Assembly (NCBI GenBank): GCA_964631415.1
Contig: CAZVZC010000005.1
Location: 18,084-82,083 of the forward strand
From: an uncultured archaeon
Lineage (GTDB): Archaea > Asgardarchaeota > Thorarchaeia > Thorarchaeales > Thorarchaeaceae
Reading direction: 5' to 3'
DNA length: 64,000 bases
The notes under the pieces were generated by a model. That model saw only the letters and a list, made by a program, of their open reading frames with translations. It was not told the DNA's origin and ran no database searches. This document shows positions 2,548-47,875 of this stretch, one piece after another (position 1 is the first letter of the stretch; every line of letters starts with the position of its first letter). A program made the position numbers and the translations under genes.

Positions 2548-2664
2548 TGGTGCGGGAGACGGGACACTCACACGCTCAGAAACTGATACGTGTTTTGAAC
2601 CCGTGAATCCCTACGGAAGCAGATCTTAAGCCTGCCGCCTTTGACCAGACTTGGCAACTCCCGC
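2548..2664 (-). tRNA. tRNA-Leu(TAA) with 29-nt intron at 59/60 (2565-2593), CCA encoded
   Basis: Acceptor GCGGGAG/CTCCCGC, anticodon arm GCAGG-CTTAAGA-TCTGC, long variable arm, T-stem ACGGG/CCCGT; insert forms a BHB (UUCA/UGAG helix, bulges AA|A and UG|U). Confidence 0.93.
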
Positions 2665-2980
2665 ATGGGTTGCACATTATTGGTGACCCCTTGGTTTCAC
2701 CGTAGGGCTCTCCGCGGGTATCGCATGGTCACGAAGCGTTCTTCAACCTTTGGCCTGTTGATTCTGCGGATTCCCCTAGGAGAACCACCCGTTGCACTCG
2801 GACTAGCTTGTGAATGCCATTTAGAGCTGTCTTCTGACACACTTCAAATCAGTGACTTATGAGTATCCAACTCGGCTTTCACGACCGCAAAGTATGCCTT
2901 CTGCGGGAGTTTCAGGTGCGTCCAGCTTCTGTGTAATGAGCGCATCCAGAATCAGTTTCGAAAACTGCATGCTGTGTGGA

Positions 2981-3086
2981 TGGTGGGGCGGACGAGACTT
3001 GAACTCGTGACCTACTCGGTGTAAGCGAGTCATCATGGCCGATCTAGACCACCCTATAGAGGAGTGGTTGTCTAGACTACCGCCCC
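2981..3086 (-). tRNA. tRNA-Val(TAC) with 28-nt D-loop intron (~17/17a; 3042-3069), CCA encoded
   Basis: Acceptor GGGGCGG/CCGCCCC, anticodon arm ACTCG-CTTACAC-CGAGT, T-arm ACGAG-TTCAAGT-CTCGT; hairpin insert in the D-loop with CUAG/CUAG central helix. Confidence 0.92.
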
Positions 3087-3123
3087 TATGCGTGAGCCTA
3101 TCTGTGGATAATAAAAGAGTTGC

Positions 3124-3801
3124 TCAGAGGCGGACTGCGGCTAAATGGAATTCCTGCAGTGATTCGTCAAGGACTATTGCTTGCACATCAGTGTAGCCCA
3201 ACGCAGACACACCTCCGGTCAGAGCCGACACGATATCGGGTTTCGCTCTGGACTTGAATGCCGCGACCAGTCTGCCATTATGCTTCAACAGTCGAGAAAA
3301 GCGTTCGATTAAAGATAGAGTCCCTTCCGGATCGGTTGTCACATCCACAAGCATCACGTCCAGTTCTTCCTCACTGCAGATACTGAGAGGATCCATGTTG
3401 AAAGCGTCTGCAATGAGGATGGAGATGCTAGGCCAAGTCTTAGATAGCTCTGTGAGCGGCTCCAGAAACCTGTTGGAAACCTCGATGCCCTTTGCTACTG
3501 CACCCCTTTCAGCTAGGTACCGGAGGAACCCCCCAGCAGAGCTTCCGATATCGAGAACTAGGTCCCCTGCGGACACGAAACGGCCGCCCAAGAGGGTGTC
3601 AAGCCGCTTGAGCTTGTCATAACCGACCGGAGCATCTGAGGACTCCATAGAAACAGCTATCGACTCGGTACCGGTCACTTGAGTCGATGACTTGGCGACA
3701 CGGCCATCAACTGTCACCATACCGTCACGGATAGCCCGCTTTGCAGCCTGTCGCGAGTGGAATCTGCCTGTTTCCACTAGCCAGACATCAAGTCGAGGCA
3801 T
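3124..3801 (-). CDS. S4-domain SAM-dependent RNA methyltransferase (TlyA/FtsJ-like)
   Basis: N-terminal RLDVWLVETG..SRQAAKRAIRDGMVTVDG (S4) and VLDIGSSAGGF SAM motif. Confidence 0.85.
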   Translation of the reverse strand: MPRLDVWLVETGRFHSRQAAKRAIRDGMVTVDGRVAKSSTQVTGTESIAVSMESSDAPVGYDKLKRLDTLLGGRFVSAGDLVLDIGSSAGGFLRYLAERGAVAKGIEVSNRFLEPLTELSKTWPSISILIADAFNMDPLSICSEEELDVMLVDVTTDPEGTLSLIERFSRLLKHNGRLVAAFKSRAKPDIVSALTGGVSALGYTDVQAIVLDESLQEFHLAAVRL

Positions 3802-4561
3802 GGTCTTCTCCTCGAATGTTGTTGGGCACAAACAAGTGAATAGGGACGCCCCTCAGCCGAGGACCAATAGCTGCTACGATACCTGATGCGTGTGTTGACC
3901 TCTTGCACATCAGAGAATACTCGAATGGACCCAGTTGCTCGACTGCAAAGATGTCCTCAAGGTGCCGCGTCTTGGACAGAGCGTGCTCCAGCATCTCTTT
4001 CGTGACACCCAATACAATGAGCCGTTCGTGGTCATCGGACGTCCAGCTGGTGATTCTTTTCAAAATAAACTCAGTGAATTGTGCCTCGATTGTTGGCTTA
4101 CCTGCATCCACCTTCGTCACTCTGATCTCCACAGGGAGATTGTTCACTAGGACGAGTTTGCTGGCGATAGCTCTCACAGACTTGTCGTGCATCTCGAACT
4201 GTTCGCGGACATGATACAATGGGACCAATGCATCTATCGCTTGCGGGACACGAATACCCATATCGACATACAGCCCAAAGCCGACTTTGCCAATGTCGAC
4301 AAGCCATCCGTACGATACGACCCCGGGACTCAAGTCTTGGAGCCTCGGTGCAATACCCCATTGCTTGGCAAGAGCATTTGCAGCGAACTCTTCGTCCTCT
4401 CCTTCTAGACTCACGGACAGACGTCCAGCTGAATCTGTCCGTAGGCTCACAAGCTGGGCATCGAGGCCTGTGATGACGCTCGAGATGCTGGCCTTGACTG
4501 TCCGCAGCAACCGCTGTCTGTAGGTGCCATATGTGTGAACTGACAGATCAAGGTGTTTCAA
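3788..4561 (-). CDS. DUF2110-family protein
   Basis: GKVGFGLYVD motif, C-terminal GIVAAIGP; position downstream of tfe as in many archaea. Confidence 0.75.
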   Translation of the reverse strand: MKHLDLSVHTYGTYRQRLLRTVKASISSVITGLDAQLVSLRTDSAGRLSVSLEGEDEEFAANALAKQWGIAPRLQDLSPGVVSYGWLVDIGKVGFGLYVDMGIRVPQAIDALVPLYHVREQFEMHDKSVRAIASKLVLVNNLPVEIRVTKVDAGKPTIEAQFTEFILKRITSWTSDDHERLIVLGVTKEMLEHALSKTRHLEDIFAVEQLGPFEYSLMCKRSTHASGIVAAIGPRLRGVPIHLFVPNNIRGEDHAST

Positions 4562-8255: not shown

Positions 8256-8645
8256 ATGGGATTCAGAGGTCTATCACCCAAACAGATATCGCGAATGATG
8301 AAGAAGATGGGAATTGAACAGGAGGAATTGACCGGAGTCAAGGAAGTGGTAATTCGCTTTGCTGACAAGGAGTGGTTCATTCCCGATGCCCATGTATCGA
8401 TGATTAAGCAGCCAGGTGCCGAGTCGTATCAAGTATCAGGAACTAGGAAGGAACGTGCACTGACATCTGACAGTGGGACTAAAGAAGCTGCAAAGGCGAC
8501 ACAGAGGAAGACTGTTGAGATACCAATCCAAGATGCTGCACTTGTCGCTAGTCAGACTGGTGTGACTGTTGATGTGGCAATGAGCGTGTTGAAGGAAACA
8601 GACGGCGATCTTGCTGCTGCGATACTGAAACTACGTCGCAGCTAG
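8256..8645 (+). CDS. nac: Nascent polypeptide-associated complex protein
   Basis: PKQISRMMKKMGI...VKEVVI NAC domain and C-terminal UBA-like GDLAAAIL; ATG at 8256. Confidence 0.93.
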   Translation: MGFRGLSPKQISRMMKKMGIEQEELTGVKEVVIRFADKEWFIPDAHVSMIKQPGAESYQVSGTRKERALTSDSGTKEAAKATQRKTVEIPIQDAALVASQTGVTVDVAMSVLKETDGDLAAAILKLRRS

Positions 8646-8704
8646 GATTCGTGTAGTATTTGTAATACAACGAGAACTCGCCGACCGAAGGTCCAGTACC
8701 GGTC

Positions 8705-9694: not shown

Positions 9695-10026
9695 TTTCTC
9701 TTTCTCCTGGAACTGGCAGATGATTGGACCCTGAGGTCCAGTTCTTGAACCTCTCTGTTCCGTTGAAAAAGATTATGGCTGGTCGACCTGTAGACTATCG
9801 AGAACCGTGCAAATAGGAGGGAGGCATTTCTGTGTTGGCCGGTTCATGTTGATACTGAACGTGCCAGTCGTTAGTTAGTCAACCACAAGTTGCATTCCAA
9901 CTGCACTAAGACCCAAGCATACTGTCTGTTCGAGGAGTCACAAATCATCTGTTAGTACCTCGTGTTTCATTCAGCACTTCACAGGAAACAGACTACCACA
10001 CAACTTATATCGACGTGCTGTCTTCT

Positions 10027-10063
10027 GTGATTGTATTACAACCACTACTTGTGATACTGTCAC
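10027..10063. promoter_or_regulatory. Two imperfect 13-bp palindromes (GTGATTGTATTAC, GTGATACTGTCAC), putative operator
   Basis: Located between a TATA-like CTTATAT (~10004) and the ATG at 10086; the same motif recurs at 14289 and 14307. Confidence 0.5.
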
Positions 10064-10085
10064 TTGCGGTACCGAGGTATAGAGC

Positions 10086-11060
10086 ATGACGATTGCCATT
10101 CACGAGAGCGCGCTGATACGTCACTTCAACACCAGGAAGGAAACGTTGCGAGCTTGGGAAGAGAAGATTGGATGCCGGTTCTCGCCCTTCAGAGGGTTCA
10201 AGATGCCTGACTCGCGCCTGTATATCGAGCATCCTGATTTCTTGGATAGCATAGTCGACCTTGTCTTGACTAATGAGCGTCACATCTTCATTCGGGGACC
10301 TGTCGGTTCGGGGAAAAGCACACTCATGCTCTTGGCCCTGAGAGACCTGCCCACCCTCATGGACCGACGAGGAAACAGGTTTGTTGCGGGCTATGTCGGA
10401 ATGACGGGGCTGTATGAGAAACAAATGGCAGCTGCAATTGCAGATTCCTTGAGGGTGAAGTATAGGAGGTCATGGGAGACGAGCCAGATCATAGAAGCGA
10501 TCTCTGTCGAGAGTGTGCGCAGGTACATCGAGGAGAAATGTCGCACTGCGCTCTTCATAGAGGATGTTGCAGACAACCAAGAAGCGGCCTTTCATAAGAT
10601 ACGGTATCTTGCCGACCTTCCTACAGAGGAGATGAAGGATAGCTATGGGACTGCATTGGATGAACCGATTGTAACACTCATTATGAGTGGCACCATGGAG
10701 TACTGGAATGCTATGCTGAACTACCTTCCTCAGATAGCTGACAGGACCGAACCCTTGGATGTCCCGCCTTTTGATGATGCGAAAGCGAGGGAGTTCATAG
10801 CCCGTAGAGTTGCATATGCGCAAGGCAAGATTGACACCTTTGACAAGGACAACATTGACGTCTACCCCTTTACGGACGAGGCAGTGCGATGCATCAACGA
10901 AGCGGCGAAGGGCAATCCCAGGGACATACGGATGCTGGCGCGAGGATGTGAACAGGTAGCAGCCGAGGAATTCAGGAGAACAGGTGATCCGACGGTCGCT
11001 CAAAAGATTGCGGAGCTGGTAGCCGATGCATATGCTGTGATCCTCAAGGAGGTGCACTAG
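10086..11060 (+). CDS. AAA+ ATPase (ExeA/Cdc6-like fold, no C-terminal winged helix)
   Basis: Walker A GPVGSGKST, Walker B-like ALFIEDVA, IADR arginine finger, AKGNPRDI sensor-2. Confidence 0.85.
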   Translation: MTIAIHESALIRHFNTRKETLRAWEEKIGCRFSPFRGFKMPDSRLYIEHPDFLDSIVDLVLTNERHIFIRGPVGSGKSTLMLLALRDLPTLMDRRGNRFVAGYVGMTGLYEKQMAAAIADSLRVKYRRSWETSQIIEAISVESVRRYIEEKCRTALFIEDVADNQEAAFHKIRYLADLPTEEMKDSYGTALDEPIVTLIMSGTMEYWNAMLNYLPQIADRTEPLDVPPFDDAKAREFIARRVAYAQGKIDTFDKDNIDVYPFTDEAVRCINEAAKGNPRDIRMLARGCEQVAAEEFRRTGDPTVAQKIAELVADAYAVILKEVH

Positions 11061-11381
11061 TTGAGCGTACTTGGGAAGTACAGAAGAGAGGCGGACAGGG
11101 AAGAGGAGGAGAAACCTGAAGCGACTTCTAAGAGTCGAGAGAGTGAGAGAGGTAGTGTGGACAGAGGAAGAGAGGAAACGCCTAGACAGACAGAATCCGT
11201 ACCGAACAGAGACAGAAAGAGTCCAATAGTTTCCTTCTCCATACCCACCGACTTGAGAGCTTGCCTACAAGCAATAAGGAAGAATAAGGCAATCAATCTC
11301 AGCATGTGGGTAGAAAAGCAGCTTCGGAAGGCGATACTTGAAGAATTCCCGGGCATAGCAGAGAAGTACCTTGAATCATGA
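11061..11381 (+). CDS. Putative ribbon-helix-helix DNA-binding protein with disordered charged N-terminus
   Basis: TTG abuts the ATPase stop, GGAGGTG SD; C-terminal PIVSFSIPTDLRACLQAIRKNKAINLSMWVEKQLRKAI has a beta-alpha-alpha RHH pattern. Confidence 0.75.
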   Translation: MSVLGKYRREADREEEEKPEATSKSRESERGSVDRGREETPRQTESVPNRDRKSPIVSFSIPTDLRACLQAIRKNKAINLSMWVEKQLRKAILEEFPGIAEKYLES

Positions 11382-11444: not shown

Positions 11445-12875
11445 TCACATTGTATTGTATGTGGCACGTTCCGGATACAGACTAGTGGAATCACTGTGCA
11501 TCTGGGCATATTCTACTGCTCGACTGATACACATGATGGCCAGTGCAGGATCATCATAACAGGGAATGTGGTGTGCTTCGAGCAACTCCTTCCCCGGTCG
11601 AGCCACATCACCGGCAAGCCACACTCCAACAACAGGTTTCTTTGTCCGAGATGTCCTGACTCCCTCCAATGTCCCTTCGGCATGTTCGATTTCTGTCATT
11701 CCTGCGAATGTTGGAACGGCACAAATCACAAGTAGGACGTCTACACTTCGGTCTCGGAGTGCAGACTCTGCTGCAATCTGGTACTCCCTCCTTCCTCCAG
11801 TGGCAACCACATCGATAGGGTTCTCGACTGAGGCAAGAGGAGATAGGACTTCGTGCAGTTCCCTACGAGTACTACTATTGAGTAAGGACAATGTGAGGTT
11901 CTGATCGGAAGCAGCATCTGCTGCTAGGACACCAGCACCTCCTGTATTACTAATAATACAAATCTTACGACCTGTCGGGAGTGGTTGATAATCAAAGAAC
12001 TTGCATATCTCAAGGAGCGTGTCAAGAGTGGGGGCAGTCACACAGCCCGCCTGTTGAATCATTCCAGTGAAGACCCCCGTAGATCCTGCAAGAGAGCCCG
12101 TATGTGACTTGACTGCCTTGCCGCCTTGTTCACTACGGCCCCCTTTCAGAATCACAACAGGTTTCTTCTCGGCGGTGTTGCGTAGTGACTCGAACACTGC
12201 ACGGCCATTACTGACGCCTTCCATGTACATGGCAATAACCGATGTACTGGAATCCTCGCCTAGGTAGTCCAGAATCTCCGTGAAGTCAACATCCGCCGCA
12301 TTTCCGATGCCTACAAACTTGTTGAGCCCGATGTTCTTAGTACGAGTGATATAGATGCAGACTCCACCAAGGGCTCCACTCTGAGAAACAAGAGATATAC
12401 GTCCACGCTCGGGCATGACAGTGAATGTACCATTGAACAGACGGCTGTTTGACACTCCGACACAGTTGGGACCAAGAAATCTAACACCTGCATCTTTGGC
12501 CGCCTTTACAAGAGTTTCCTCTATCTGCGCTCCTTCTGTGCCGGTTTCACCGAAACCTCCAGAGAATATGACTGCGTTCCGTGCACCGGCTCTTCGGATT
12601 TCATCCATCAGTCCTGGGCAGTGTTTGGCTTCTATAGCTACTAGCACTAGGTCGACAGGCTCTGGCAGATCCGCCAAGCTCCTGTACGCCATCATGCCTG
12701 CAACACTGCCACCGCTACGTGTCACTGGATACACCCTGACTTTCGAAGTCAAGAGATTCATGAGAATTGAATTGCCGAGCTTTCGCGGATCTGATGATGC
12801 ACCAACAAGAGCAATCTTGCGAGGATTGAAGAAAAGATCCATGACACCTGTTGGTTTACCCTCAGTGACAGTCAT
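11445..12875 (-). CDS. acdA: Acetate/acyl-CoA ligase (ADP-forming) alpha subunit
   Basis: CoA-binding ALVGAS, LGPNCVG, SQSGAL, phospho-His SHTGSLAG, NPID. Confidence 0.93.
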   Translation of the reverse strand: MTVTEGKPTGVMDLFFNPRKIALVGASSDPRKLGNSILMNLLTSKVRVYPVTRSGGSVAGMMAYRSLADLPEPVDLVLVAIEAKHCPGLMDEIRRAGARNAVIFSGGFGETGTEGAQIEETLVKAAKDAGVRFLGPNCVGVSNSRLFNGTFTVMPERGRISLVSQSGALGGVCIYITRTKNIGLNKFVGIGNAADVDFTEILDYLGEDSSTSVIAMYMEGVSNGRAVFESLRNTAEKKPVVILKGGRSEQGGKAVKSHTGSLAGSTGVFTGMIQQAGCVTAPTLDTLLEICKFFDYQPLPTGRKICIISNTGGAGVLAADAASDQNLTLSLLNSSTRRELHEVLSPLASVENPIDVVATGGRREYQIAAESALRDRSVDVLLVICAVPTFAGMTEIEHAEGTLEGVRTSRTKKPVVGVWLAGDVARPGKELLEAHHIPCYDDPALAIMCISRAVEYAQMHSDSTSLYPERATYNTM

Positions 12876-12937
12876 GTACGGTTCCAGATAGGAACTCGAT
12901 TTATGTCTAACTAGAAAGGTCTGTCATACTATTATTA

Positions 12938-14284
12938 CTAGTAATACCGACTCATTGGATCCTTTGGCATTCTCTGATAGACTCGTTTCAGTCTGTTTCG
13001 GTTTGGACGCCCTGAACGCAGGGTGATGTGTATCATGTATCTTGCTTCGGGACTCTTCTTCACTATGTTCTCTAGAGCCGACACTGAGGTGTCCAGTATC
13101 TCTCTTGTTCTTGTGTTGCACGCTATGTCGATGAGTACAGAAACCGCAGATTCGTGATAGAAGCCGCTTAGAGCGACAACTGCGGGTGTGACTACCCGGG
13201 CATCATCCATCTTGGCTAGCTTTCCAAGTATGGCAACAGACTCCTCCGTCCTGATTACGATATGGCTGTTGATGCAGTAGACTAGCTTACGGTAGTCCTC
13301 ACTCGACTCTGTGGTTTCGTAGGCTGCAATCTGACTGTCAAGTAGTGCGTTCAGCGTGAGTACGGCATGTCTGCTGCCAAGGGACCGAAGAACCTCTTGA
13401 TCTTGGTCAATGATTGATGCTAGAAGAAGATTGTACAAGCAATTCGATGGTGTGGCATATTCTCGGGGTCCTAGTGGCCCAGAGTCATTGCACCAGTCAG
13501 ACTGCGTACCGAGCATTCTCTGTATTACGGGCAATACAGTAGCCTCGCTCAGAGGAAGTTGCTTGCCCTTGACACCCAGTTCGGCCAGAACTCTGCGTGC
13601 GATTTCTGTCGACCACAGGGATGCGATATCTATGGTGTCGCCGCATATGACAGGCTTCATTCTCTTCAGCTCAATGTCCCTCATCGTTTCGAACGCCAAT
13701 TGCATGTCTGGCCTGCAATCACTGATGGCCAGTGATTGGTCGAAGAAGAAAGATTCACTTGAGGTGATTTGTTCGACAGCAAGCTGGCAGACTCGTTCTG
13801 AGAAATGCAATGAAGCTGCAACCATCGATGCTTCCCCTCCCAGGTCGCTGAGTAGGGCTGCAGTGTCAATATTGACAGGTTCGAGTCCAGTGCACGAAAA
13901 GAGACCGAATACCATTTCTCGATACTTCAGGGGTTCGAGCCGAGTACGACAACTGCCCGGGCTGACTGGAAGCGAATAGTCCATCTCGGCCGCCCGTTTC
14001 AGGAGTTGCAGTGCGGCAGGCCAACCAAGTTCGCGTTCCGTCGCAGCAGTGATATCGAGCAGGTCTCTACTTCTTCTCTCAGCTATTGCATCAACGAACT
14101 CCTGCAGCCGTACTCGATCCTCGGCCGCTCTGGCACGCTCGGCGCTTGCCTTGAGAATCCAGCTGTGATCATCGTGCTGTGTCAAGTCAATCACTGCATA
14201 GCCCAAGTTCGAATTCGTCATCGACCGTGAGTGAATAAGACTTTGTCCTGTGCCTTTCGCAGGTCGACAAGGGCGGCTGGACAA
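12938..14284 (-). CDS. Hypothetical alpha-helical protein with HEAT-like C-terminus (start possibly 14221)
   Basis: 448-aa ORF; C-terminal VVTPAVVALSGFYHESAVSVLIDIA resembles a HEAT/PBS repeat. Confidence 0.7.
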   Translation of the reverse strand: MSSRPCRPAKGTGQSLIHSRSMTNSNLGYAVIDLTQHDDHSWILKASAERARAAEDRVRLQEFVDAIAERRSRDLLDITAATERELGWPAALQLLKRAAEMDYSLPVSPGSCRTRLEPLKYREMVFGLFSCTGLEPVNIDTAALLSDLGGEASMVAASLHFSERVCQLAVEQITSSESFFFDQSLAISDCRPDMQLAFETMRDIELKRMKPVICGDTIDIASLWSTEIARRVLAELGVKGKQLPLSEATVLPVIQRMLGTQSDWCNDSGPLGPREYATPSNCLYNLLLASIIDQDQEVLRSLGSRHAVLTLNALLDSQIAAYETTESSEDYRKLVYCINSHIVIRTEESVAILGKLAKMDDARVVTPAVVALSGFYHESAVSVLIDIACNTRTREILDTSVSALENIVKKSPEARYMIHITLRSGRPNRNRLKRVYQRMPKDPMSRYY

Positions 14285-14333: not shown

Positions 14334-14695
14334 GTTGTCTTGGATCTCGAAACGAGCCATTCAGCCTGAGAAACTATGCGTTCTAGGATTAGAACTATGT
14401 ATTCCTGCGTAGTTACCTATAGTGAGTGTGTCGTGCTAGTAACGACTCGTTACAGTACTCTTTCACAGGGCTCACTTGAGCGTCCGTCAGAGGAATCTCT
14501 ATCTCCTCAAAACAAGCATACCTCTAAGAGCGTCCGATGTCGGCACGAGCGAGTCCGTGAGATCAGCGTCCACTGAATTCCAGTGCTGTCGCTGATGGCA
14601 CGACGCACTCGAGTTTTTCCGCATGGCGAAGTCCGAAAGTGACACGAATGTATTGTGATACCTGTATTACCAGAGTGCCAGCCGCTGTTTGCCCG

Positions 14696-15259
14696 CTAGC
14701 TGCTCCAATTCGGGTCTTCTCTGATGCGAGAGAGCACTGATTTCAGAGACAGTGGAGATGATACCTCTTCCAAAGCAGACAAGACTGTTCGCTCAGCCGC
14801 TTTGTAGCTCTCAGCATCTTCGCTCGTCAGATGTCCTTTACCTGCCAGCACATCACGTACTTTTCTGTAGTCGCCGATTTTCGCGGCTATCTCTTCAAAG
14901 GGCCTGAAGACTGTGAATTCGAACAGACCCAGATATCCTAGGAGCAACATAGTGTATAGACACCTGGTTACATTCGTTCGTGCCTGCTGAAGAGTCCTGT
15001 TGAAAGCGCCTCGTGACACTCCAGTCGACTGATTTTGGCCCCTAGAACGGAAGGATGCCTTCTCCTCGTAAGGTATATGCGTCCCAAGGGTGTCTTCTAC
15101 AACTAGGTCAATCAGGAGAGTTTCGAGCTGTGAGTCTGTGAGATTCGACCCCTTGAGCAAGACCCTGAGTATGGGCTCTTTCAATACCTGTCTTGCGCCG
15201 GATGATGCTCTTTTTGCAGCCCTTGCACCCCTGTCGGCTTCAGTCTGATCAGGATTCAT
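14696..15259 (-). CDS. Conserved archaeal hypothetical protein, probable HTH
   Basis: LTDSQLETLL...GVSRGAFNRTLQQAR..V...LYTMLLLGYLG pattern recalled from uncharacterised TACK/Asgard proteins; AAGGAG SD before ATG 15259. Confidence 0.75.
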   Translation of the reverse strand: MNPDQTEADRGARAAKRASSGARQVLKEPILRVLLKGSNLTDSQLETLLIDLVVEDTLGTHIPYEEKASFRSRGQNQSTGVSRGAFNRTLQQARTNVTRCLYTMLLLGYLGLFEFTVFRPFEEIAAKIGDYRKVRDVLAGKGHLTSEDAESYKAAERTVLSALEEVSSPLSLKSVLSRIREDPNWSS

Positions 15260-15732
15260 GAGATTGAACTCCTTTTTTTGAAAACGGGACCAAACGGCCC
15301 CCCAAGGTCGAATTGGATGTCTACGATGTCTTTCAAGACATGCGACAATCAATCGACCAAGCGGATACAAATCCGTATACGGCATCGATAGTTGTATGCC
15401 CTTAACATAAATGCTTCTAGCCTACCGGCATTCTCGAACCGTTCTTTGTTGGTTGGGCAAAATCGGGCGCAAGAGTCTTTGCGCTCGTAGAAGAAGCACT
15501 ATGATTACATATTGTAGGATGGTTCCTGTCGGGATAAACTCTGAGAGGAGTCTACTCAGGAGATACTCAAGCCGGTACTGAACAGTGTCGAAGGCAGTCC
15601 GAACTTTACGCGGCTGGCACACCTTCTTCCGATCACAATCTGACATAGGTTCTGAGTGAAAGGTGATGATGCATTGTAGCTGGGAGCTCACGACAGGGAA
15701 TGCATTCTGCAGTGATATCGCTTCGACAGACT

Positions 15733-16149
15733 TCATCTTCCACTGAGTGTCCACTCCGAACCTAGCGGTATCGGCACAAATCCGAGAATCAGATTCCCCC
15801 GGATCTCGTCAAACTTGAAGACGCCGAGTAGATGGTTTCCAGATGTGGTGTCCCATTCCACCCACCCTCTACTCAGGTAGTATTGGAACACATTTCTACA
15901 CTGTTTTCGTACTGATGAGAAAAGCTGTCGATAGCGTCTTCGTTGCGAAGGGCGGATGCCCCACCTACTGAGAATGAAACGATTGGCAAGACCATTGCTT
16001 GAAACAAGCACTGGCTTTCTTCCCTTCGGCTGAGTTACGATGATTCTCTGAAGGGCCTCGTGAAGACACTCTGGCACCGCAGCTAGGATGGACGGAGTCG
16101 GGCTGGGATCTCTAAACAGTGAACGATTCTGCTCAGTGGACGTGGACAC
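15733..16149 (-). CDS. Basic hypothetical protein, possible winged helix
   Basis: 138 aa, Arg-rich helices followed by a beta-hairpin-like GVFKFDEIRGNLILGFV. Confidence 0.65.
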   Translation of the reverse strand: MSTSTEQNRSLFRDPSPTPSILAAVPECLHEALQRIIVTQPKGRKPVLVSSNGLANRFILSRWGIRPSQRRRYRQLFSSVRKQCRNVFQYYLSRGWVEWDTTSGNHLLGVFKFDEIRGNLILGFVPIPLGSEWTLSGR

Positions 16150-16401: not shown

Positions 16402-16619
16402 TTCGTCTAGACTACTTACTGCAGGTTGGACAGAGTTGGATACAGTGAACTCTGCCCAATCCATGAGCGGCTGTCGCATACCTCGCATTTGCATCGTGAT
16501 ACTGGTAATGTTAGTAATACAACAGAGTAGACGCGGGCTCCAATCTATCTGTATGCAGGTTTGACGCTTCATTGAGTTAATATCGACTGGTGTATCCTCC
16601 GGCGGTAGGGCTCCTGAAC

Positions 16620-18995
16620 TTGAAACAAAGAGCGGACATTCATGTCGCAGGCGTCGTTCAAGGAGTAGGATTTCGGCCCTTTGTGTATCGTCTTGCCACC
16701 AGCATGGGCTTGGTCGGCTATGTACTGAACCTCGGGACTTCGGGGGTTCGGATTGTAGCAGAGGGGGAAAGAAATTGTATCGAGCATCTGGTCAGTGAGA
16801 TAAAGTCACATCCGCCATCAGTTTCTAGAATCGACTCCATCCAGATCGACTGGGCAGAACCAAGGAACGATTTTTCAGACTTTTCAATCGAGAAGTCATC
16901 AGCAGCCAGAACCGACTCTTCAGCCCTTGAGATCCCTCCCGACATCGCCACATGCAATGAATGTGTCCAAGATTTGATGAACCCGGACTCACGCTGGTAT
17001 ATGTATCCGTTCACATCGTGTTCTGCCTGTGGACCTAGGTTCTCTACGATAGTAGAGCTCCCATATGACAGGCCCAATACTACTATGAGCGATTTCCCTC
17101 TTTGTACCAAATGCGGAACCGAATACTCAGAGCCTCGAAACCGTCGATATCATGCACAGACCACTGCATGCCAATCGTGCGGGCCCGCATATCGTCTGGT
17201 GAATTCACGTGGCAAGGATGAAGGAACAAGCAACCCAATAGCTACTGCCTCAGATTTGATTGCGAGAGGAGCAATAATCGCAGTCCAGGGAATCTCTGGA
17301 ACGCATCTCGTGACAAAGACTACTGATCCCGAGCCATTGCAGGAGTTGAGAAGAAGAAAAAGAAGGTCACAGAGGCCGTTTGCAATAATGGTGAGGAACC
17401 TTCGAACTCTGTCGGCTCTTTTCGCTGTTTCTGACCAAGAAGCTGAACTTCTCTCGTCTTGGCGCAAGCCCGTGGTCTTGGTGAGAAAACCAGCAGAGCC
17501 GTCAGTTGTGAATCCGGCCTCTAGAACGACCGTATCAGGTGTAATACCAACGGAGGTTCTCGAAGCGATCTCGCCGGGTTTAGACACAGTGGGAGTGATG
17601 TTGCCTTACTCACCTATACACCATCTTCTCTTCCATTATCTGGACGAACCAGCACTTGTCATGACAAGCGCAAATCCAACAGGCGTGCCTATGTACATTA
17701 ATCCTGATACAATCATTTCAGAACTCGGGAACGTTGCTGATGGGTTCTTGGTTCACAATAGAAGAATTCACCAGAGAGCAGATGACTCCGTGGTCAAGTT
17801 CGTCGGAAACATTCCGGTGTTCATACGGAGAGGACGGGGGTATGTGCCGGAACCACTTGAGTTGGATGATCATTTTAGCACGACTCAGGTTGTAGCTTTA
17901 GGTCCCGAAGAGAAGACCACGGGAGCAGTCCTGAAATCTGACAAGATCTACATGACTCAACATATAGGAGACACTGACAGGACAGAAAACGTTGAGTTTC
18001 TTTGGAACGCTTTGAAACACCTCATGCAGTTAGCTGGAGTGACCAGACCTGATACGGTTGCTTGCGATCTCCACCCCGAGTTCCTAACTACAGATTTCGG
18101 CAGAGAGATAGCGACGGAATACGAAGTGCCGCTCATCCAAGTTCAGCATCACCATGCTCATATGGCATCACTGGTTGTCGACCGTCGAGTTCCTACTGAC
18201 ACTTCTATTACTTGTATTACCATGGATGGGTATGGCTACGCGCCTGACCGAACAGCTTGGGGGGGTGAAGTGTTGATCGGTGGCCTCATGGCGGCAAAGA
18301 AGTATGGAGGTCTCAAGCCGCAGAAGTATATAGGAGGAAACCTGTCTGCGAGGTATGCAGTCAGAGCTCTAATGGGGATAATTGGGACTGCTCTTGACTA
18401 CGGTCAGGTTGTTGAAATGATGGGTGGTGCTAGCGTCGCACCGAATGTAGCCGTCAGTAGTGAGAGCTTATCCATGCTCGCGGAAGCACAGAACAAAGGA
18501 CTGAATGTTATTGTGAGCACAAGCGCTGGGAGATATCTCGATGCTGTGGCAGCGGCTCTAGGAGTGTGTTATGAGAATACCTATGATGGTGAGTGCCCCA
18601 TGAAGCTTGAGGCAATAGCCCGAGAAACAGACTTCAGGATTAATGCGGAGTATCATACTGGACACGGTTCACTTGAGTTGGACACCACAACATCGTTAGA
18701 TCAAGTATTCCAATTGAGGAAAAGGGGAGTCCCGATTCCAGAGATTGCATATGCGGCGCAGTGGCATCTGGGAGAAGCCTTGGCAGAGATTGCATGCACG
18801 GTTTCAAAAGGCGAAGGTGTGGAAGCTATTGGCCTTTCGGGCGGAGTAGCCGTCAACCGGATCATCACAATGGCAGCGCTTACTCGCATCGCGCGAGAAA
18901 AACTCCAGCCGTTGATTCACATGAGTATTCCGCCAGGAGACGGCGGCATTTCGGTTGGTCAAGCTGCTGTAGCCGCATGGAAGTCGCTCCACTGA
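16620..18995 (+). CDS. hypF: Carbamoyltransferase HypF
   Basis: Acylphosphatase GVVQGVGFRPFVY, two Zn fingers, HHHAH, PPGDGGISVGQ. Confidence 0.97.
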   Translation: MKQRADIHVAGVVQGVGFRPFVYRLATSMGLVGYVLNLGTSGVRIVAEGERNCIEHLVSEIKSHPPSVSRIDSIQIDWAEPRNDFSDFSIEKSSAARTDSSALEIPPDIATCNECVQDLMNPDSRWYMYPFTSCSACGPRFSTIVELPYDRPNTTMSDFPLCTKCGTEYSEPRNRRYHAQTTACQSCGPAYRLVNSRGKDEGTSNPIATASDLIARGAIIAVQGISGTHLVTKTTDPEPLQELRRRKRRSQRPFAIMVRNLRTLSALFAVSDQEAELLSSWRKPVVLVRKPAEPSVVNPASRTTVSGVIPTEVLEAISPGLDTVGVMLPYSPIHHLLFHYLDEPALVMTSANPTGVPMYINPDTIISELGNVADGFLVHNRRIHQRADDSVVKFVGNIPVFIRRGRGYVPEPLELDDHFSTTQVVALGPEEKTTGAVLKSDKIYMTQHIGDTDRTENVEFLWNALKHLMQLAGVTRPDTVACDLHPEFLTTDFGREIATEYEVPLIQVQHHHAHMASLVVDRRVPTDTSITCITMDGYGYAPDRTAWGGEVLIGGLMAAKKYGGLKPQKYIGGNLSARYAVRALMGIIGTALDYGQVVEMMGGASVAPNVAVSSESLSMLAEAQNKGLNVIVSTSAGRYLDAVAAALGVCYENTYDGECPMKLEAIARETDFRINAEYHTGHGSLELDTTTSLDQVFQLRKRGVPIPEIAYAAQWHLGEALAEIACTVSKGEGVEAIGLSGGVAVNRIITMAALTRIAREKLQPLIHMSIPPGDGGISVGQAAVAAWKSLH

Positions 18996-46681: not shown

Positions 46682-47875
46682 ATGTCTCGGGACTATGTTG
46701 AGGACGAGCTAAGCCGACACAGTGTGTTCAAGTCAGAGCAATTCCTGTCTGTCGACTATGTCCCTGAAATACTTCCTCATCGCGAATTGGAGCTGAGAGC
46801 TCTAGCTCAGAGCTTCAAGACAATCATAACATCACCCGGTCGGACCAGCCAGAGATTCATCGTGGAGGGGCCTGTTGGCACTGGAAAGACAGCAGTGACT
46901 AAGAGGTTCTCGGAGCAAATGGTCCAAGCGGCCAACAGAAGAGGCATTCGGTTGCACAAACTGCATATCAACTGCCGAGTGAACAAAACTACTAACCTAA
47001 TCTACATGAAGATGCTTCGTGAGTTTAAGCCGATGTTTCCTCGTAGAGGGCACTCGCCTGCCGAAATCCTCCAAATGGTCTTAGAGGTTCTCGACTCTGA
47101 AGACGAGTATCTCCTATTGATATTGGATGAGCTTGACTATTTCATTAGACAGAGGGGCACAGACATACTCTATGACCTCACGCGACTTATGGACGACCGA
47201 CTCAATGCCCCACAAAGGATCTCAATGATTGGAGTGGGACGAAACATCTCAGTTGACGAGAGTATGTTCGATCATAGTATCCTCAGCACTCTCCAGCGCA
47301 ACATCTCACACTTCGACAAATACGACTCTGAGGCGCTGCACGACATTCTGAGAGACCGTGTCATGTTGGCATTTGAGCCGAACACGGTCATGGACGAGGC
47401 TCTCCAAGTCATATCCGACATAGCATCCGAGCGCGGCGATGCAAGGTATGCTATTGAGCTATTGTGGCGTGCAGGCAAGCAAGCCGATCGCGAGGGCTCT
47501 AAGGCAGTTTATCCAGACTACGTACGTCAGGCCAAGGCCGACACACACCCTGAGCTGAGGAAGGAGGTCTTCACCTCTCTCCCGCTACAGACCAAACTTC
47601 TCTTGCTGGCTGCAAGCAGGCATCTGAAGGAGATTCGTAGTGCCTATGCGACGATAGGAGAGGTGGAGGACATGTATCACACAGTGTGCGAAGAATATGG
47701 ACAAGAGCCAAGAGCACACACCCAAGTCTGGCAGTGGGTCCAAGACCTCAGTGCTCATGGAGTAGTCGACACAAAGCGGTCTGGACAAGGTCAGAGGGGC
47801 CAGACTACGCTCATTGGTCTTTCGGACGTTCCTGCGGACATGCTTGAACGTTTCCTTGTAGATCTGCTCAAGTGA
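46682..47875 (+). CDS. cdc6: Orc1/Cdc6 replication initiator
   Basis: YVPEILPHRE, GPVGTGKT, LILDELD, GDARYAIELL, C-terminal winged helix ending GQRGQT. Confidence 0.97.
   Translation: MSRDYVEDELSRHSVFKSEQFLSVDYVPEILPHRELELRALAQSFKTIITSPGRTSQRFIVEGPVGTGKTAVTKRFSEQMVQAANRRGIRLHKLHINCRVNKTTNLIYMKMLREFKPMFPRRGHSPAEILQMVLEVLDSEDEYLLLILDELDYFIRQRGTDILYDLTRLMDDRLNAPQRISMIGVGRNISVDESMFDHSILSTLQRNISHFDKYDSEALHDILRDRVMLAFEPNTVMDEALQVISDIASERGDARYAIELLWRAGKQADREGSKAVYPDYVRQAKADTHPELRKEVFTSLPLQTKLLLLAASRHLKEIRSAYATIGEVEDMYHTVCEEYGQEPRAHTQVWQWVQDLSAHGVVDTKRSGQGQRGQTTLIGLSDVPADMLERFLVDLLK

Follow-up and report, generated by a model that had tools for sequence, protein, structure and literature searches.

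Known prokaryotic partition cassettes such as ParF-ParG, delta-omega, ParM-ParR and SegA-SegB combine a nucleoside triphosphatase (NTPase) with a tailed small DNA-binding protein and a set of short tandem repeats, and the known partition motors are ParA, ParM and TubZ. Among the small proteins, omega of the delta-omega system (pSM19035) binds 7-bp heptads and ParG of ParF-ParG/parH (TP228) binds 4-bp boxes, and both autoregulate their own promoter. Here we describe a two-gene operon from a Thorarchaeota metagenome-assembled genome (MAG; G000, 2.16 Mb in 81 contigs, 85% complete; the source genome below), which lies within a 64,000-nucleotide stretch of DNA that we refer to, at its full length, as the window. 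The operon encodes an AAA+ ATPase and a small partner protein, and is surrounded by a field of short tandem heptads. We consider it possible, with a rough probability of 0.4, that the pair is an undescribed centromere-like, origin-organizing or partition cassette with an AAA+ ATPase as its motor. The two genes are:

10086 to 11060, forward strand: AAA+ ATPase of the ExeA/AAA_22 family with an Orc1/Cdc6/TnsC/MuB-like fold, 324 residues, ATG start
11061 to 11381, forward strand: small partner protein, 106 residues, TTG start

The SegA-SegB/segS system (PMC8682754, PMC12139799, PMC12284271) resembles this pair in being a two-gene archaeal chromosomal operon in which the ATPase gene comes first. 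SegB comprises a conserved N-terminal SegA-binding part, lineage-specific insertions and a C-terminal ribbon-helix-helix (RHH) domain, with a three-repeat segS upstream of the operon (PMC12139799). The small protein described here similarly has a conserved N-terminus, a lineage-variable middle and a putative RHH-type C-terminal domain, and the heptads of this locus, like segS, are repeated upstream of the operon with further copies elsewhere. However, SegA is a ParA-type Walker ATPase, whereas the ATPase of this locus is an AAA+ protein of the Orc/ExeA/TnsC type, and SegB-like motifs occur chromosome-wide, whereas the heptad field is confined to one 10-20 kb region on the side of the origin. 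No sequence similarity between the small protein and SegB was detectable. The type Ib cassettes share with the pair an NTPase gene, a tailed RHH adaptor (putative in the present case) and arrays of very short tandem repeats. They differ in the superfamily of their motor. The locus described here is chromosomal and origin-linked, has a repeat period of 9 bp (13 bp in one other Asgard family, f19) and has its sites dispersed over many kilobases and embedded in genes.

A first-pass annotation, made from the letters alone, had compared the layout of this locus with ParF/ParG and SegAB, and the comparison holds in that an ATPase, a tailed small protein and repeated DNA sites are all present. The NTPase gene is followed by the small-protein gene with stop and start abutting, an order kept in all lineages that have the pair, and a cluster of tandem short repeats unique in the genome occupies the promoter and surrounds the two genes. 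The gene junction noted at that stage is confirmed: a GGAGGTG Shine-Dalgarno sequence lies at 11045-11051, and the TAG stop of the ATPase gene (11058-11060) directly abuts the TTG start at 11061.

The Walker A motif of the ATPase, GPVGSGKST, spans residues 71-79, its IADR motif ends at R220 and its GNPR motif at R279. R220 is likely the arginine finger, and R279 likely the sensor 2 residue. In the family alignment G74, G76, K77, R220 and R279 are invariant and D177 is nearly so. The Walker B motif of the Thorarchaeota members is FIEDV, with a valine after D177 and the catalytic glutamate missing, and distant members have DEAQ in its place; from this pattern the protein may be read as a switch-type ATPase with slow intrinsic hydrolysis. 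The earlier description of the protein as a Cdc6/ExeA-like ATPase devoid of both the ParA KGGxGKT motif and a winged helix is borne out. Both the ParA-type deviant Walker A (KGGxGKT; KGGxxGKT/S) and the ParA/MinD fold are absent from the protein, whose fold is AAA+. Its AlphaFold model, based on an 18-sequence alignment (predicted local distance difference test score, pLDDT, 91), starts with a helix that precedes the AAA+ base, in which two helices separate strands 2 and 3, and finishes with the lid and a single terminal helix (306-323), so that the 324 residues include no winged helix.

Structure comparisons of this model with VIA-align recovered Drosophila Cdc6 (7jgr; Z 19.5, 2.8 Å over 250 residues), archaeal Cdc6/ORC proteins (Z 18.7-18.9), TnsC (18.6) and MuB (17.4), with the Cdc6/ORC structures aligning over 250-268 residues that cover the base and the lid. 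Foldseek matched Cdc6/ORC at E 1e-9, and a search of the PDB with the family profile recovered ORC1 at 1.6e-9. Thus the Orc1/Cdc6 proteins (1fnn, 1w5s, 2qby; 7jgr) share with the ATPase the base and lid fold, and the pair neighbours orc1/cdc6 genes; they differ from the ATPase, which lacks the C-terminal winged helix, fails the orc1/cdc6 models (TIGR02928, 12.1 bits against a cut-off of 181.3) and has an N-terminal segment of the ExeA type (G29...PF). At the level of sequence the relationship is to the AAA_22 group, which unites TnsC/MuB/TniB and ExeA (GspA). None of the curated family models is passed by the window protein itself, which reaches 22 bits with AAA_22 against a cut-off of 27, and this sub-threshold score sets the Thorarchaeota branch apart from the rest of the group, as does a Walker B with ED for DE. 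Distant members of the family (P0243, P0255, P0258, P0259, P0262) pass AAA_22 at 34-60 bits, and one distant member passes the Pfam TniB threshold. The match to TIGR03015 (PEP-CTERM/ExeA-type) has an E of 2.9e-6 and is far under the cut-off, and the JGI label for the homologues is 'ExeA'.

The small protein consists of a basic tip (MSVLGKYRRE), about 40 variable charged residues and about 50 strongly conserved residues, as judged from 17 aligned homologues. Its N-terminus, M-S-(V/L/I)-L-G-K-Y-R-(R/K)-E, is invariant or nearly so across these homologues, which argues that the TTG start is real. The conserved C-terminal segment, residues 55-103, has a strand-helix-helix, RHH-like pattern. In a low-confidence AlphaFold monomer (pLDDT 58, falling under 50 at residues 14-23 and 30-39) it has helices at 61-74, 82-95 and 97-103, preceded by the sequence IVSFSI. 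The basic tip and charged linker that had been claimed for this protein are thus supported by sequence and conservation, and an RHH fold, claimed alongside them, is plausible from the sequence pattern though weakly indicated. Pfam scans of the small proteins yielded sub-threshold matches only. Prediction of a complex of the ATPase with two copies of the small protein, run without controls, scored 0.25 against a mark of 0.32, and is evidence neither way.

Conservation of the two genes was assessed in 17 oriented Thorarchaeota loci and in other Asgard classes, which are referred to by family labels (f-numbers). The source genome has a single copy of the ATPase gene. Of 24 genomes in the same family, 23 encode it, with 78-97% identity, which falls to 66% in one genome of the same order and to 25-34% in other Asgard families. 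When 1.84 billion representative proteins were searched exhaustively with HMMER, only 30 relatives scored E <=0.001 and 9 E <=1e-30; the named ones derive from Asgard MAGs with Thor, Odin, Freyr and Heimdall/Gerd labels and, in one case, from a MAG labelled Bathyarchaeota. With the family profile (E <1e-80), full-length orthologues were found in families f1, f2, f3, f7, f19 and f21, and f12 has a divergent form of 434-458 residues. The pair is adjacent and co-oriented in 17/17 Thorarchaeota loci and occurs in at least six other Asgard lineages (Odin-, Freyr/Jord-, f19-, f21-, f12- and Heimdall/Gerd-labelled), so that the two genes are conserved together, a check that the first-pass annotation had proposed. 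Every lineage with the ATPase encodes a protein of 100-160 residues directly after it, whose N-terminus is conserved and basic, whose middle is of low complexity and whose C-terminal part has a strand-helix-helix pattern, and the small proteins of f12, the Heimdall/Gerd type and Thorarchaeota have in common the ending (D/E)FP-x-(I/V)-x-x-K-Y. Between genera, identity to the window protein is 78-85% for the ATPase, 64-68% for acetyl-CoA synthetase, 51-69% for the core of a helix-turn-helix (HTH)-like protein encoded nearby, 51-59% for HypF and 29-46% for a 448-residue open reading frame (ORF).

Upstream of the ATPase gene both of the palindromes reported earlier are present, as are the two genes and their motifs, and it is the conservation of the second palindrome that needs correction. 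The first, at 10027-10045, is GTGATTGTATTACAACCAC, in which 8 of 9 pairs match and the core, TTGTATTACAA, is perfect; the second, GTGATACTGTCAC at 10051-10063, has 5 of 6. The latter is not a conserved site: it is not kept as a palindrome even in the closest genome, in which the ATPase is 97% identical, and allowing up to 2 mismatches it has 5 matches in the window against 2.0 expected, a number reached in 7 of 100 shuffles. The element conserved across genera is instead TTGTATTACAA-nn-ACTAC-nn-GTGATAC (GTATTAC-nn-nnACTAC-nn-GTGATAC). In most genera it appears 20-60 nt before the ATG as TTGTATTAC-AA-nnA(C/G)TAC-nn-GTGATAC, three heptads with a 9-bp period, and upstream of it lies a conserved box, ACCrCA-n3-CTTATATC, which from its sequence could serve as the promoter. 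The triple-heptad array probably overlaps the start of transcription. In the window these elements are:

10005 to 10012, forward strand: TATA-like box CTTATATC, some 75 nt ahead of the ATG and with ACCACA in front of it, kept in most genera
10031 to 10057, no strand: triple-heptad array TTGTATTAC-AA-CCACTAC-TT-GTGATAC, upstream of the ATPase gene

A different repeat at this locus, the 8-mer ACTGTCAC at 10056, 14294 and 14312, is not conserved in other genera and has 128 copies genome-wide. Two of its locus copies lie 18 bp apart just upstream of the 448-residue ORF. We treat it as a chance or strain-specific occurrence.

A position matrix of all GTATTAC sites in the 16 other loci has flanking heptads at -9 and +9, which identifies the unit as palindromic GTAWTAC heptads arrayed in tandem. 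In other genera such arrays occupy nearly every gap of the locus, including those between convergent genes. The 9-mer TGTAWTACA is rare genome-wide and concentrated at the locus of the pair in five genomes:

G000 (source genome): 2 genome-wide, 2 at the locus, 12 for the reversed-pattern control
G012: 22 genome-wide, 15 at the locus, 24 for the control
G004: 14 genome-wide, 9 at the locus, 21 for the control
G008: 17 genome-wide, 8 at the locus, 25 for the control
G013: 16 genome-wide, 7 at the locus, 26 for the control

With a weight matrix built from the other genera only, leaving the window out, a threshold of 13 bits gave 14 distinct sites in the 2.16-Mb source genome, and 10 of these 14 best sites fall within about 19 kb (C5:16.9-36.3 kb; window -1174 to 18230). 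Reversed or block-shuffled genomes gave 19-31 dispersed sites, with 0-2 in the same interval. The motif is hence about 40-fold enriched in the locus and about 6-fold depleted in the rest of the genome, and the field is the sole cluster. Outside the interval there are 4 sites of at least 13 bits against the 19-31 of the controls, and 0 copies of TGTAWTACA against 12 of the reversed pattern, which suggests that stray sites are avoided. Besides the promoter array, the field includes:

8643 to 8678, no strand: array between the NAC and A-ATPase subunit D genes, which converge on it
11934 to 11969, no strand: two-heptad site inside the acetyl-CoA synthetase gene (11445-12875, reverse strand)
12913 to 12948, no strand: array in the intergenic stretch from the acetyl-CoA synthetase gene to the 448-residue ORF
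13512 to 13538, no strand: array inside the 448-residue helical ORF
14645 to 14680, no strand: array GTGATAC-CT-GTATTAC, just downstream of the HTH-like gene
16495 to 16530, no strand: array GTGATAC-TG-GTAATGT-TA-GTAATAC, upstream of hypF
17694 to 17720, no strand: weaker array inside hypF, 13.7 bits
18195 to 18230, no strand: array inside hypF, closing the field towards the origin

Four of the 10 locus sites lie within genes. At the one in the acetyl-CoA synthetase gene, the peptide I-(C/G)-I-I-S-N-T-G-G is encoded with the codons ATT GGT ATT ATT AGT AAT ACA in most of the 17 genera, and the synonymous choices AGT and AAT are retained in 16-17 of 17, although genome-wide AGT accounts for 14% of serine, AAT for 36% of asparagine and ACA for 30% of threonine codons. 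The retention of rare synonymous codons in a housekeeping gene points to selection on the DNA itself rather than on promoters. Thus, the site field is unique in the genome and under selection, a result that strengthens the earlier suggestion of a partition-like system.

Motifs in other Asgard classes were defined mostly by reading promoter regions; exact k-mer counts in 40-kb regions produced a clear candidate only around the f19 ATPase gene, the 11-mer AAATGATATCA. Upstream of the ATPase genes of f19 and f7 there are (T)GATATC arrays with a period of about 13 bp. In a complete f19 genome (G060), 9 of 10 GATATC-N6-9-GATATC pairs fall within 11.4 kb (1,636.7-1,648.1 kb) around the ATPase gene at 1,642.1 kb, against 2 pairs for the reversed-pattern control, and the boxes reach into the region of orc1 and a winged-helix gene. 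Family f12 has TCAATGA-type arrays in each gap of the module, and f21 and the Heimdall/Gerd-labelled MAGs have GTAWTAC heptads as in Thorarchaeota, the latter including a 1.1-kb non-coding field of at least 6 arrays between the small-protein and HTH-like genes (L061:9351-10451). In the AT-rich Odin locus no convincing motif could be defined from k-mer counts and promoter reading. The heptad and the small protein both vary by class, while the recognition helix of the HTH-like protein is nearly constant, and f12 combines a Thorarchaeota-like HTH helix with a different heptad. This pattern favours the small protein as the binder of the heptads, a comparison that is confounded by phylogeny.

The genomic context places the pair next to replication genes. 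In Odin (G026), f7 (G030) and f19 (G060) the main orc1/cdc6 gene and an uncharacterized winged-helix gene lie 2.5-4.2 kb from the ATPase gene. In Thorarchaeota the winged-helix gene is 13-15 kb away, an orc1 paralogue about 35 kb and the main orc1 75-166 kb; in the source genome the main orc1 orthologue is on another contig (C14). The HTH-like gene is found 0-4.5 kb from the ATPase gene in all lineages with the pair, and it is a part of the neighbourhood rather than strictly of the pair, because it also occurs in the pair-less families f13 and f6. Its product has the motif GVSRGAFNRxLxQARxNV...LLGYLG and is 35% identical to the f7 copy; the family has no meaningful PDB profile match and matches Pfam only below threshold. 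The pair therefore belongs to the Asgard origin gene neighbourhood, whose members in the window include:

14696 to 15385, reverse strand: HTH-like gene with a sigma-region-4-like motif, GVSRGAFNRTLQQARTNV...LLGYLG, and a conserved core from about residue 60
21971 to 22261, reverse strand: Cas2-like small protein, a recurrent member of Asgard origin neighbourhoods
25100 to 25726, reverse strand: winged-helix protein gene, 38% identical to the copy beside orc1 in f13 (L026)
46682 to 47875, forward strand: orc1/cdc6 paralogue, preceded by a 1-kb non-coding gap

In f13, in which no pair was found, parA and parB occupy the position that the pair would have, directly upstream of the HTH-like gene (L025 of G036, 1385-2978; L026 of G046, 2652-4251). 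In L026 they are 1.4 kb from orc1/cdc6, and the L025 stretch is without orc1/cdc6. ParB orthologues were found only in f13 among 151 genomes, and no ParB homologue was detected in the source genome. The parA-parB genes of f13 may be a functional replacement of the pair.

From these observations we infer a scheme in which the heptad binder, the RHH fold, the contact between the tip and the ATPase and the cellular role are all conjectural. In it, the pair would supply the proteins of a DNA-handling cassette of Asgard archaea that is centromere-like and close to the origin. The small protein would dimerize via its C-terminal RHH-like domain and bind tandem palindromic heptads cooperatively, these being GTAWTAC with a 9-bp period in Thorarchaeota, where they form about ten arrays over about 19 kb around the operon, one of them on its own promoter for autoregulation. 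Its basic N-terminal tip, on the flexible linker, would contact the ATPase, an Orc/Cdc6/TnsC/MuB-type switch that would oligomerize on DNA with ATP and whose hydrolysis or disassembly the adaptor would control. The pair would thereby organize, position or segregate the origin-proximal chromosome, in the role of ParA/ParB-parS, ParF/ParG or SegA/SegB-segS. TnsC and MuB form ATP-dependent assemblies on DNA that are dissolved by a partner protein, which is the behaviour proposed here for the ATPase, and by analogy with its Cdc6, TnsC and MuB relatives, which assemble on DNA with ATP under the control of a partner, such a mechanism appears plausible. A more specific and more doubtful form of the proposal is a dedicated segregation or origin-positioning machine, with an Orc/Cdc6-related AAA+ motor, a tailed RHH adaptor and a multi-kilobase heptad centromere beside the origin.

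Several observations weigh against a partition-like cassette. We know of no AAA+ ATPase that acts as a partition motor. The model of the small protein, at its pLDDT of 58, has helices only, a PDB profile search with its family gave no match, and the f19 orthologues match Pfam Arc only below threshold (E 0.03-0.05) over the strand-helix-helix segment. The nearest ESM Atlas cluster to the C-terminal part (score 0.90) has RHH_10 in 21% of its members, a lead only. BLAST and hhalign fail to align the Thorarchaeota small protein with those of Odin or f7, and homology across classes hence rests on position and pattern. The match between heptad and small protein follows phylogeny and is thus not independent evidence, and the heptads may be bound by a different protein encoded here, for instance the HTH-like or the winged-helix one. 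The replacement by parAB would be a single evolutionary event. Finally, no ATPase orthologue was found in f9 (Loki-type), f5, f13 and f22 among the genomes searched, so that if the function is essential these classes would need other means to provide it.

Two alternative explanations were weighed. An unlikely one is that the pair is an accessory or control factor of the replication origin, in which an Orc/Cdc6-derived loader or remodeller is recruited in trans by the small protein to iteron-like boxes surrounding the origin; it would regulate origin firing, Orc1 or MCM loading, or origin sequestration, and this amounts, taken broadly, to the 'split initiator' that the first-pass annotation had also proposed. 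The best structural matches of the ATPase being Cdc6 and ORC, its Walker B lacking the catalytic glutamate as in switch-type ORC subunits, the proximity of the main orc1/cdc6 (2.5-4.2 kb) in three classes and the extension of GATATC boxes into the orc1/winged-helix region of G060 would all fit such a role. However, canonical orc1/cdc6 genes are present (C14 of the source genome; 46682-47875 of the window), for which reason a split initiator is without specific support, and the ATPase sequence is nearer to ExeA/AAA_22/TniB than to Orc1/Cdc6 (12 bits against 181 with TIGR02928). Moreover, the sites are spread over 10-20 kb and within genes rather than around one unwinding element, and in Thorarchaeota the field remains with the pair while the main orc1 is 75-166 kb off. 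Local transcription control, in which the small or the HTH-like protein would be a repressor or activator of the neighbouring genes and the ATPase a cofactor or an unrelated co-transcribed gene, is also rather improbable. It draws on the many arrays 20-100 nt upstream of starts (those of the ATPase gene, the 448-residue ORF, o138 and hypF), on the promoter array of the ATPase gene, which directly follows a conserved TATA-like box, and on RHH proteins being commonly autorepressors. Such control might be cell-cycle-linked as in the case of aCcr1, an archaeal RHH cell-cycle regulator of the Sulfolobales with a short box (PMC9976892). Arrays are nevertheless also found between convergent 3' ends and in coding sequence, where they are kept by synonymous codons, and the housekeeping genes under the field have no functional relation to one another. 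The sites of a regulon would be expected to be dispersed, whereas this motif is confined to one locus and depleted elsewhere, and an AAA+ partner conserved at 80% would be left unexplained.

An origin from a mobile element, either as the remnant or domesticated form of a target-selection ATPase of the TnsC/MuB/TniB type with an RHH regulator or as a plasmid or virus maintenance cassette that became fixed in the chromosome, is highly improbable. TnsC and MuB are among the best fold matches, one distant member passes TniB and partition cassettes are typical of plasmids, but the pair is single-copy in conserved core synteny across the whole family and several classes, its conservation is very high, unlike that of mobile-element genes, and there is no transposase or integrase gene beside it in the window or in the at least 30 related loci that were read. 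TnsC, MuB and ExeA differ from it in that the locus lacks a transposase partner and type II secretion genes. The 324-residue protein is an ATPase domain only, without a C-terminal membrane span or peptidoglycan-binding domain, and around it there are no ExeB/GspB partner or secretion genes; the neighbours are A-ATPase subunit D, acetyl-CoA synthetase, hypF and genes of the origin locus. Hence a grouping with secretion-associated ExeA, raised at the outset as an outcome that would count against a DNA-handling role, is not what the context indicates. A role as secretion-associated ExeA was rejected, as were those of a toxin-antitoxin pair and of a defence system, because of the single-copy core synteny, the very high conservation and the lack of matching neighbours. 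Taken together, the linkage of the two genes, the Cdc6/ExeA-like nature of the ATPase and the partition-like layout stand from the initial interpretation; the palindrome named there as the site is not the conserved element, the split initiator lacks specific support, and the RHH fold is weakly indicated.

Should the partition-like reading be correct, the pair would represent a fourth class of motor for prokaryotic DNA segregation and would imply that a centromere-like field of sites can be linked to a switch of the Orc/Cdc6 type, with a bearing on the pre-eukaryotic evolution of origin- and centromere-associated machineries. The Asgard genomes searched are mostly without ParB, and to our knowledge no SegAB has been described for Asgard archaea; the literature searched contained no paper mentioning this ATPase family. 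The locus is accordingly a concrete candidate for Asgard chromosome organization, with two small proteins and a defined DNA motif open to expression and assay without cultivation. Whatever its role, a field of sites that keeps to a single locus, extends into codons and has a motif avoided in the rest of the genome is unusual, and the heptads are a useful marker of the origin region in Asgard MAGs.

The order of genes around the pair is constant in the 17 loci, namely TM92, ATPase, small protein, acetyl-CoA synthetase, 448-residue ORF, HTH-like gene, o138 and hypF. In one variant (L042) the HTH-like gene and the 448-residue ORF are inverted, and in three (L039, L043, L044) the latter is missing. 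This helical ORF (12938-14284, reverse strand) has a weak match to HEAT_2 and evolves far more quickly than the genes around it. Between the HTH-like gene and hypF lies o138, an ORF of 138 residues (15733-16149, reverse strand) that is found at 43-66% identity in 16/16 other Thorarchaeota loci; the overlapping 110-residue ORF (15422-15754) lacks conservation and is unlikely to be a gene. At least five families (L019, L023-L027, L029, L031) also have, next to the module or the HTH-like gene, hypF and a gene for a protein of about 190 residues with an XRE-type HTH and CBS domains, and the XRE-CBS homologue of the source genome is located on C25.

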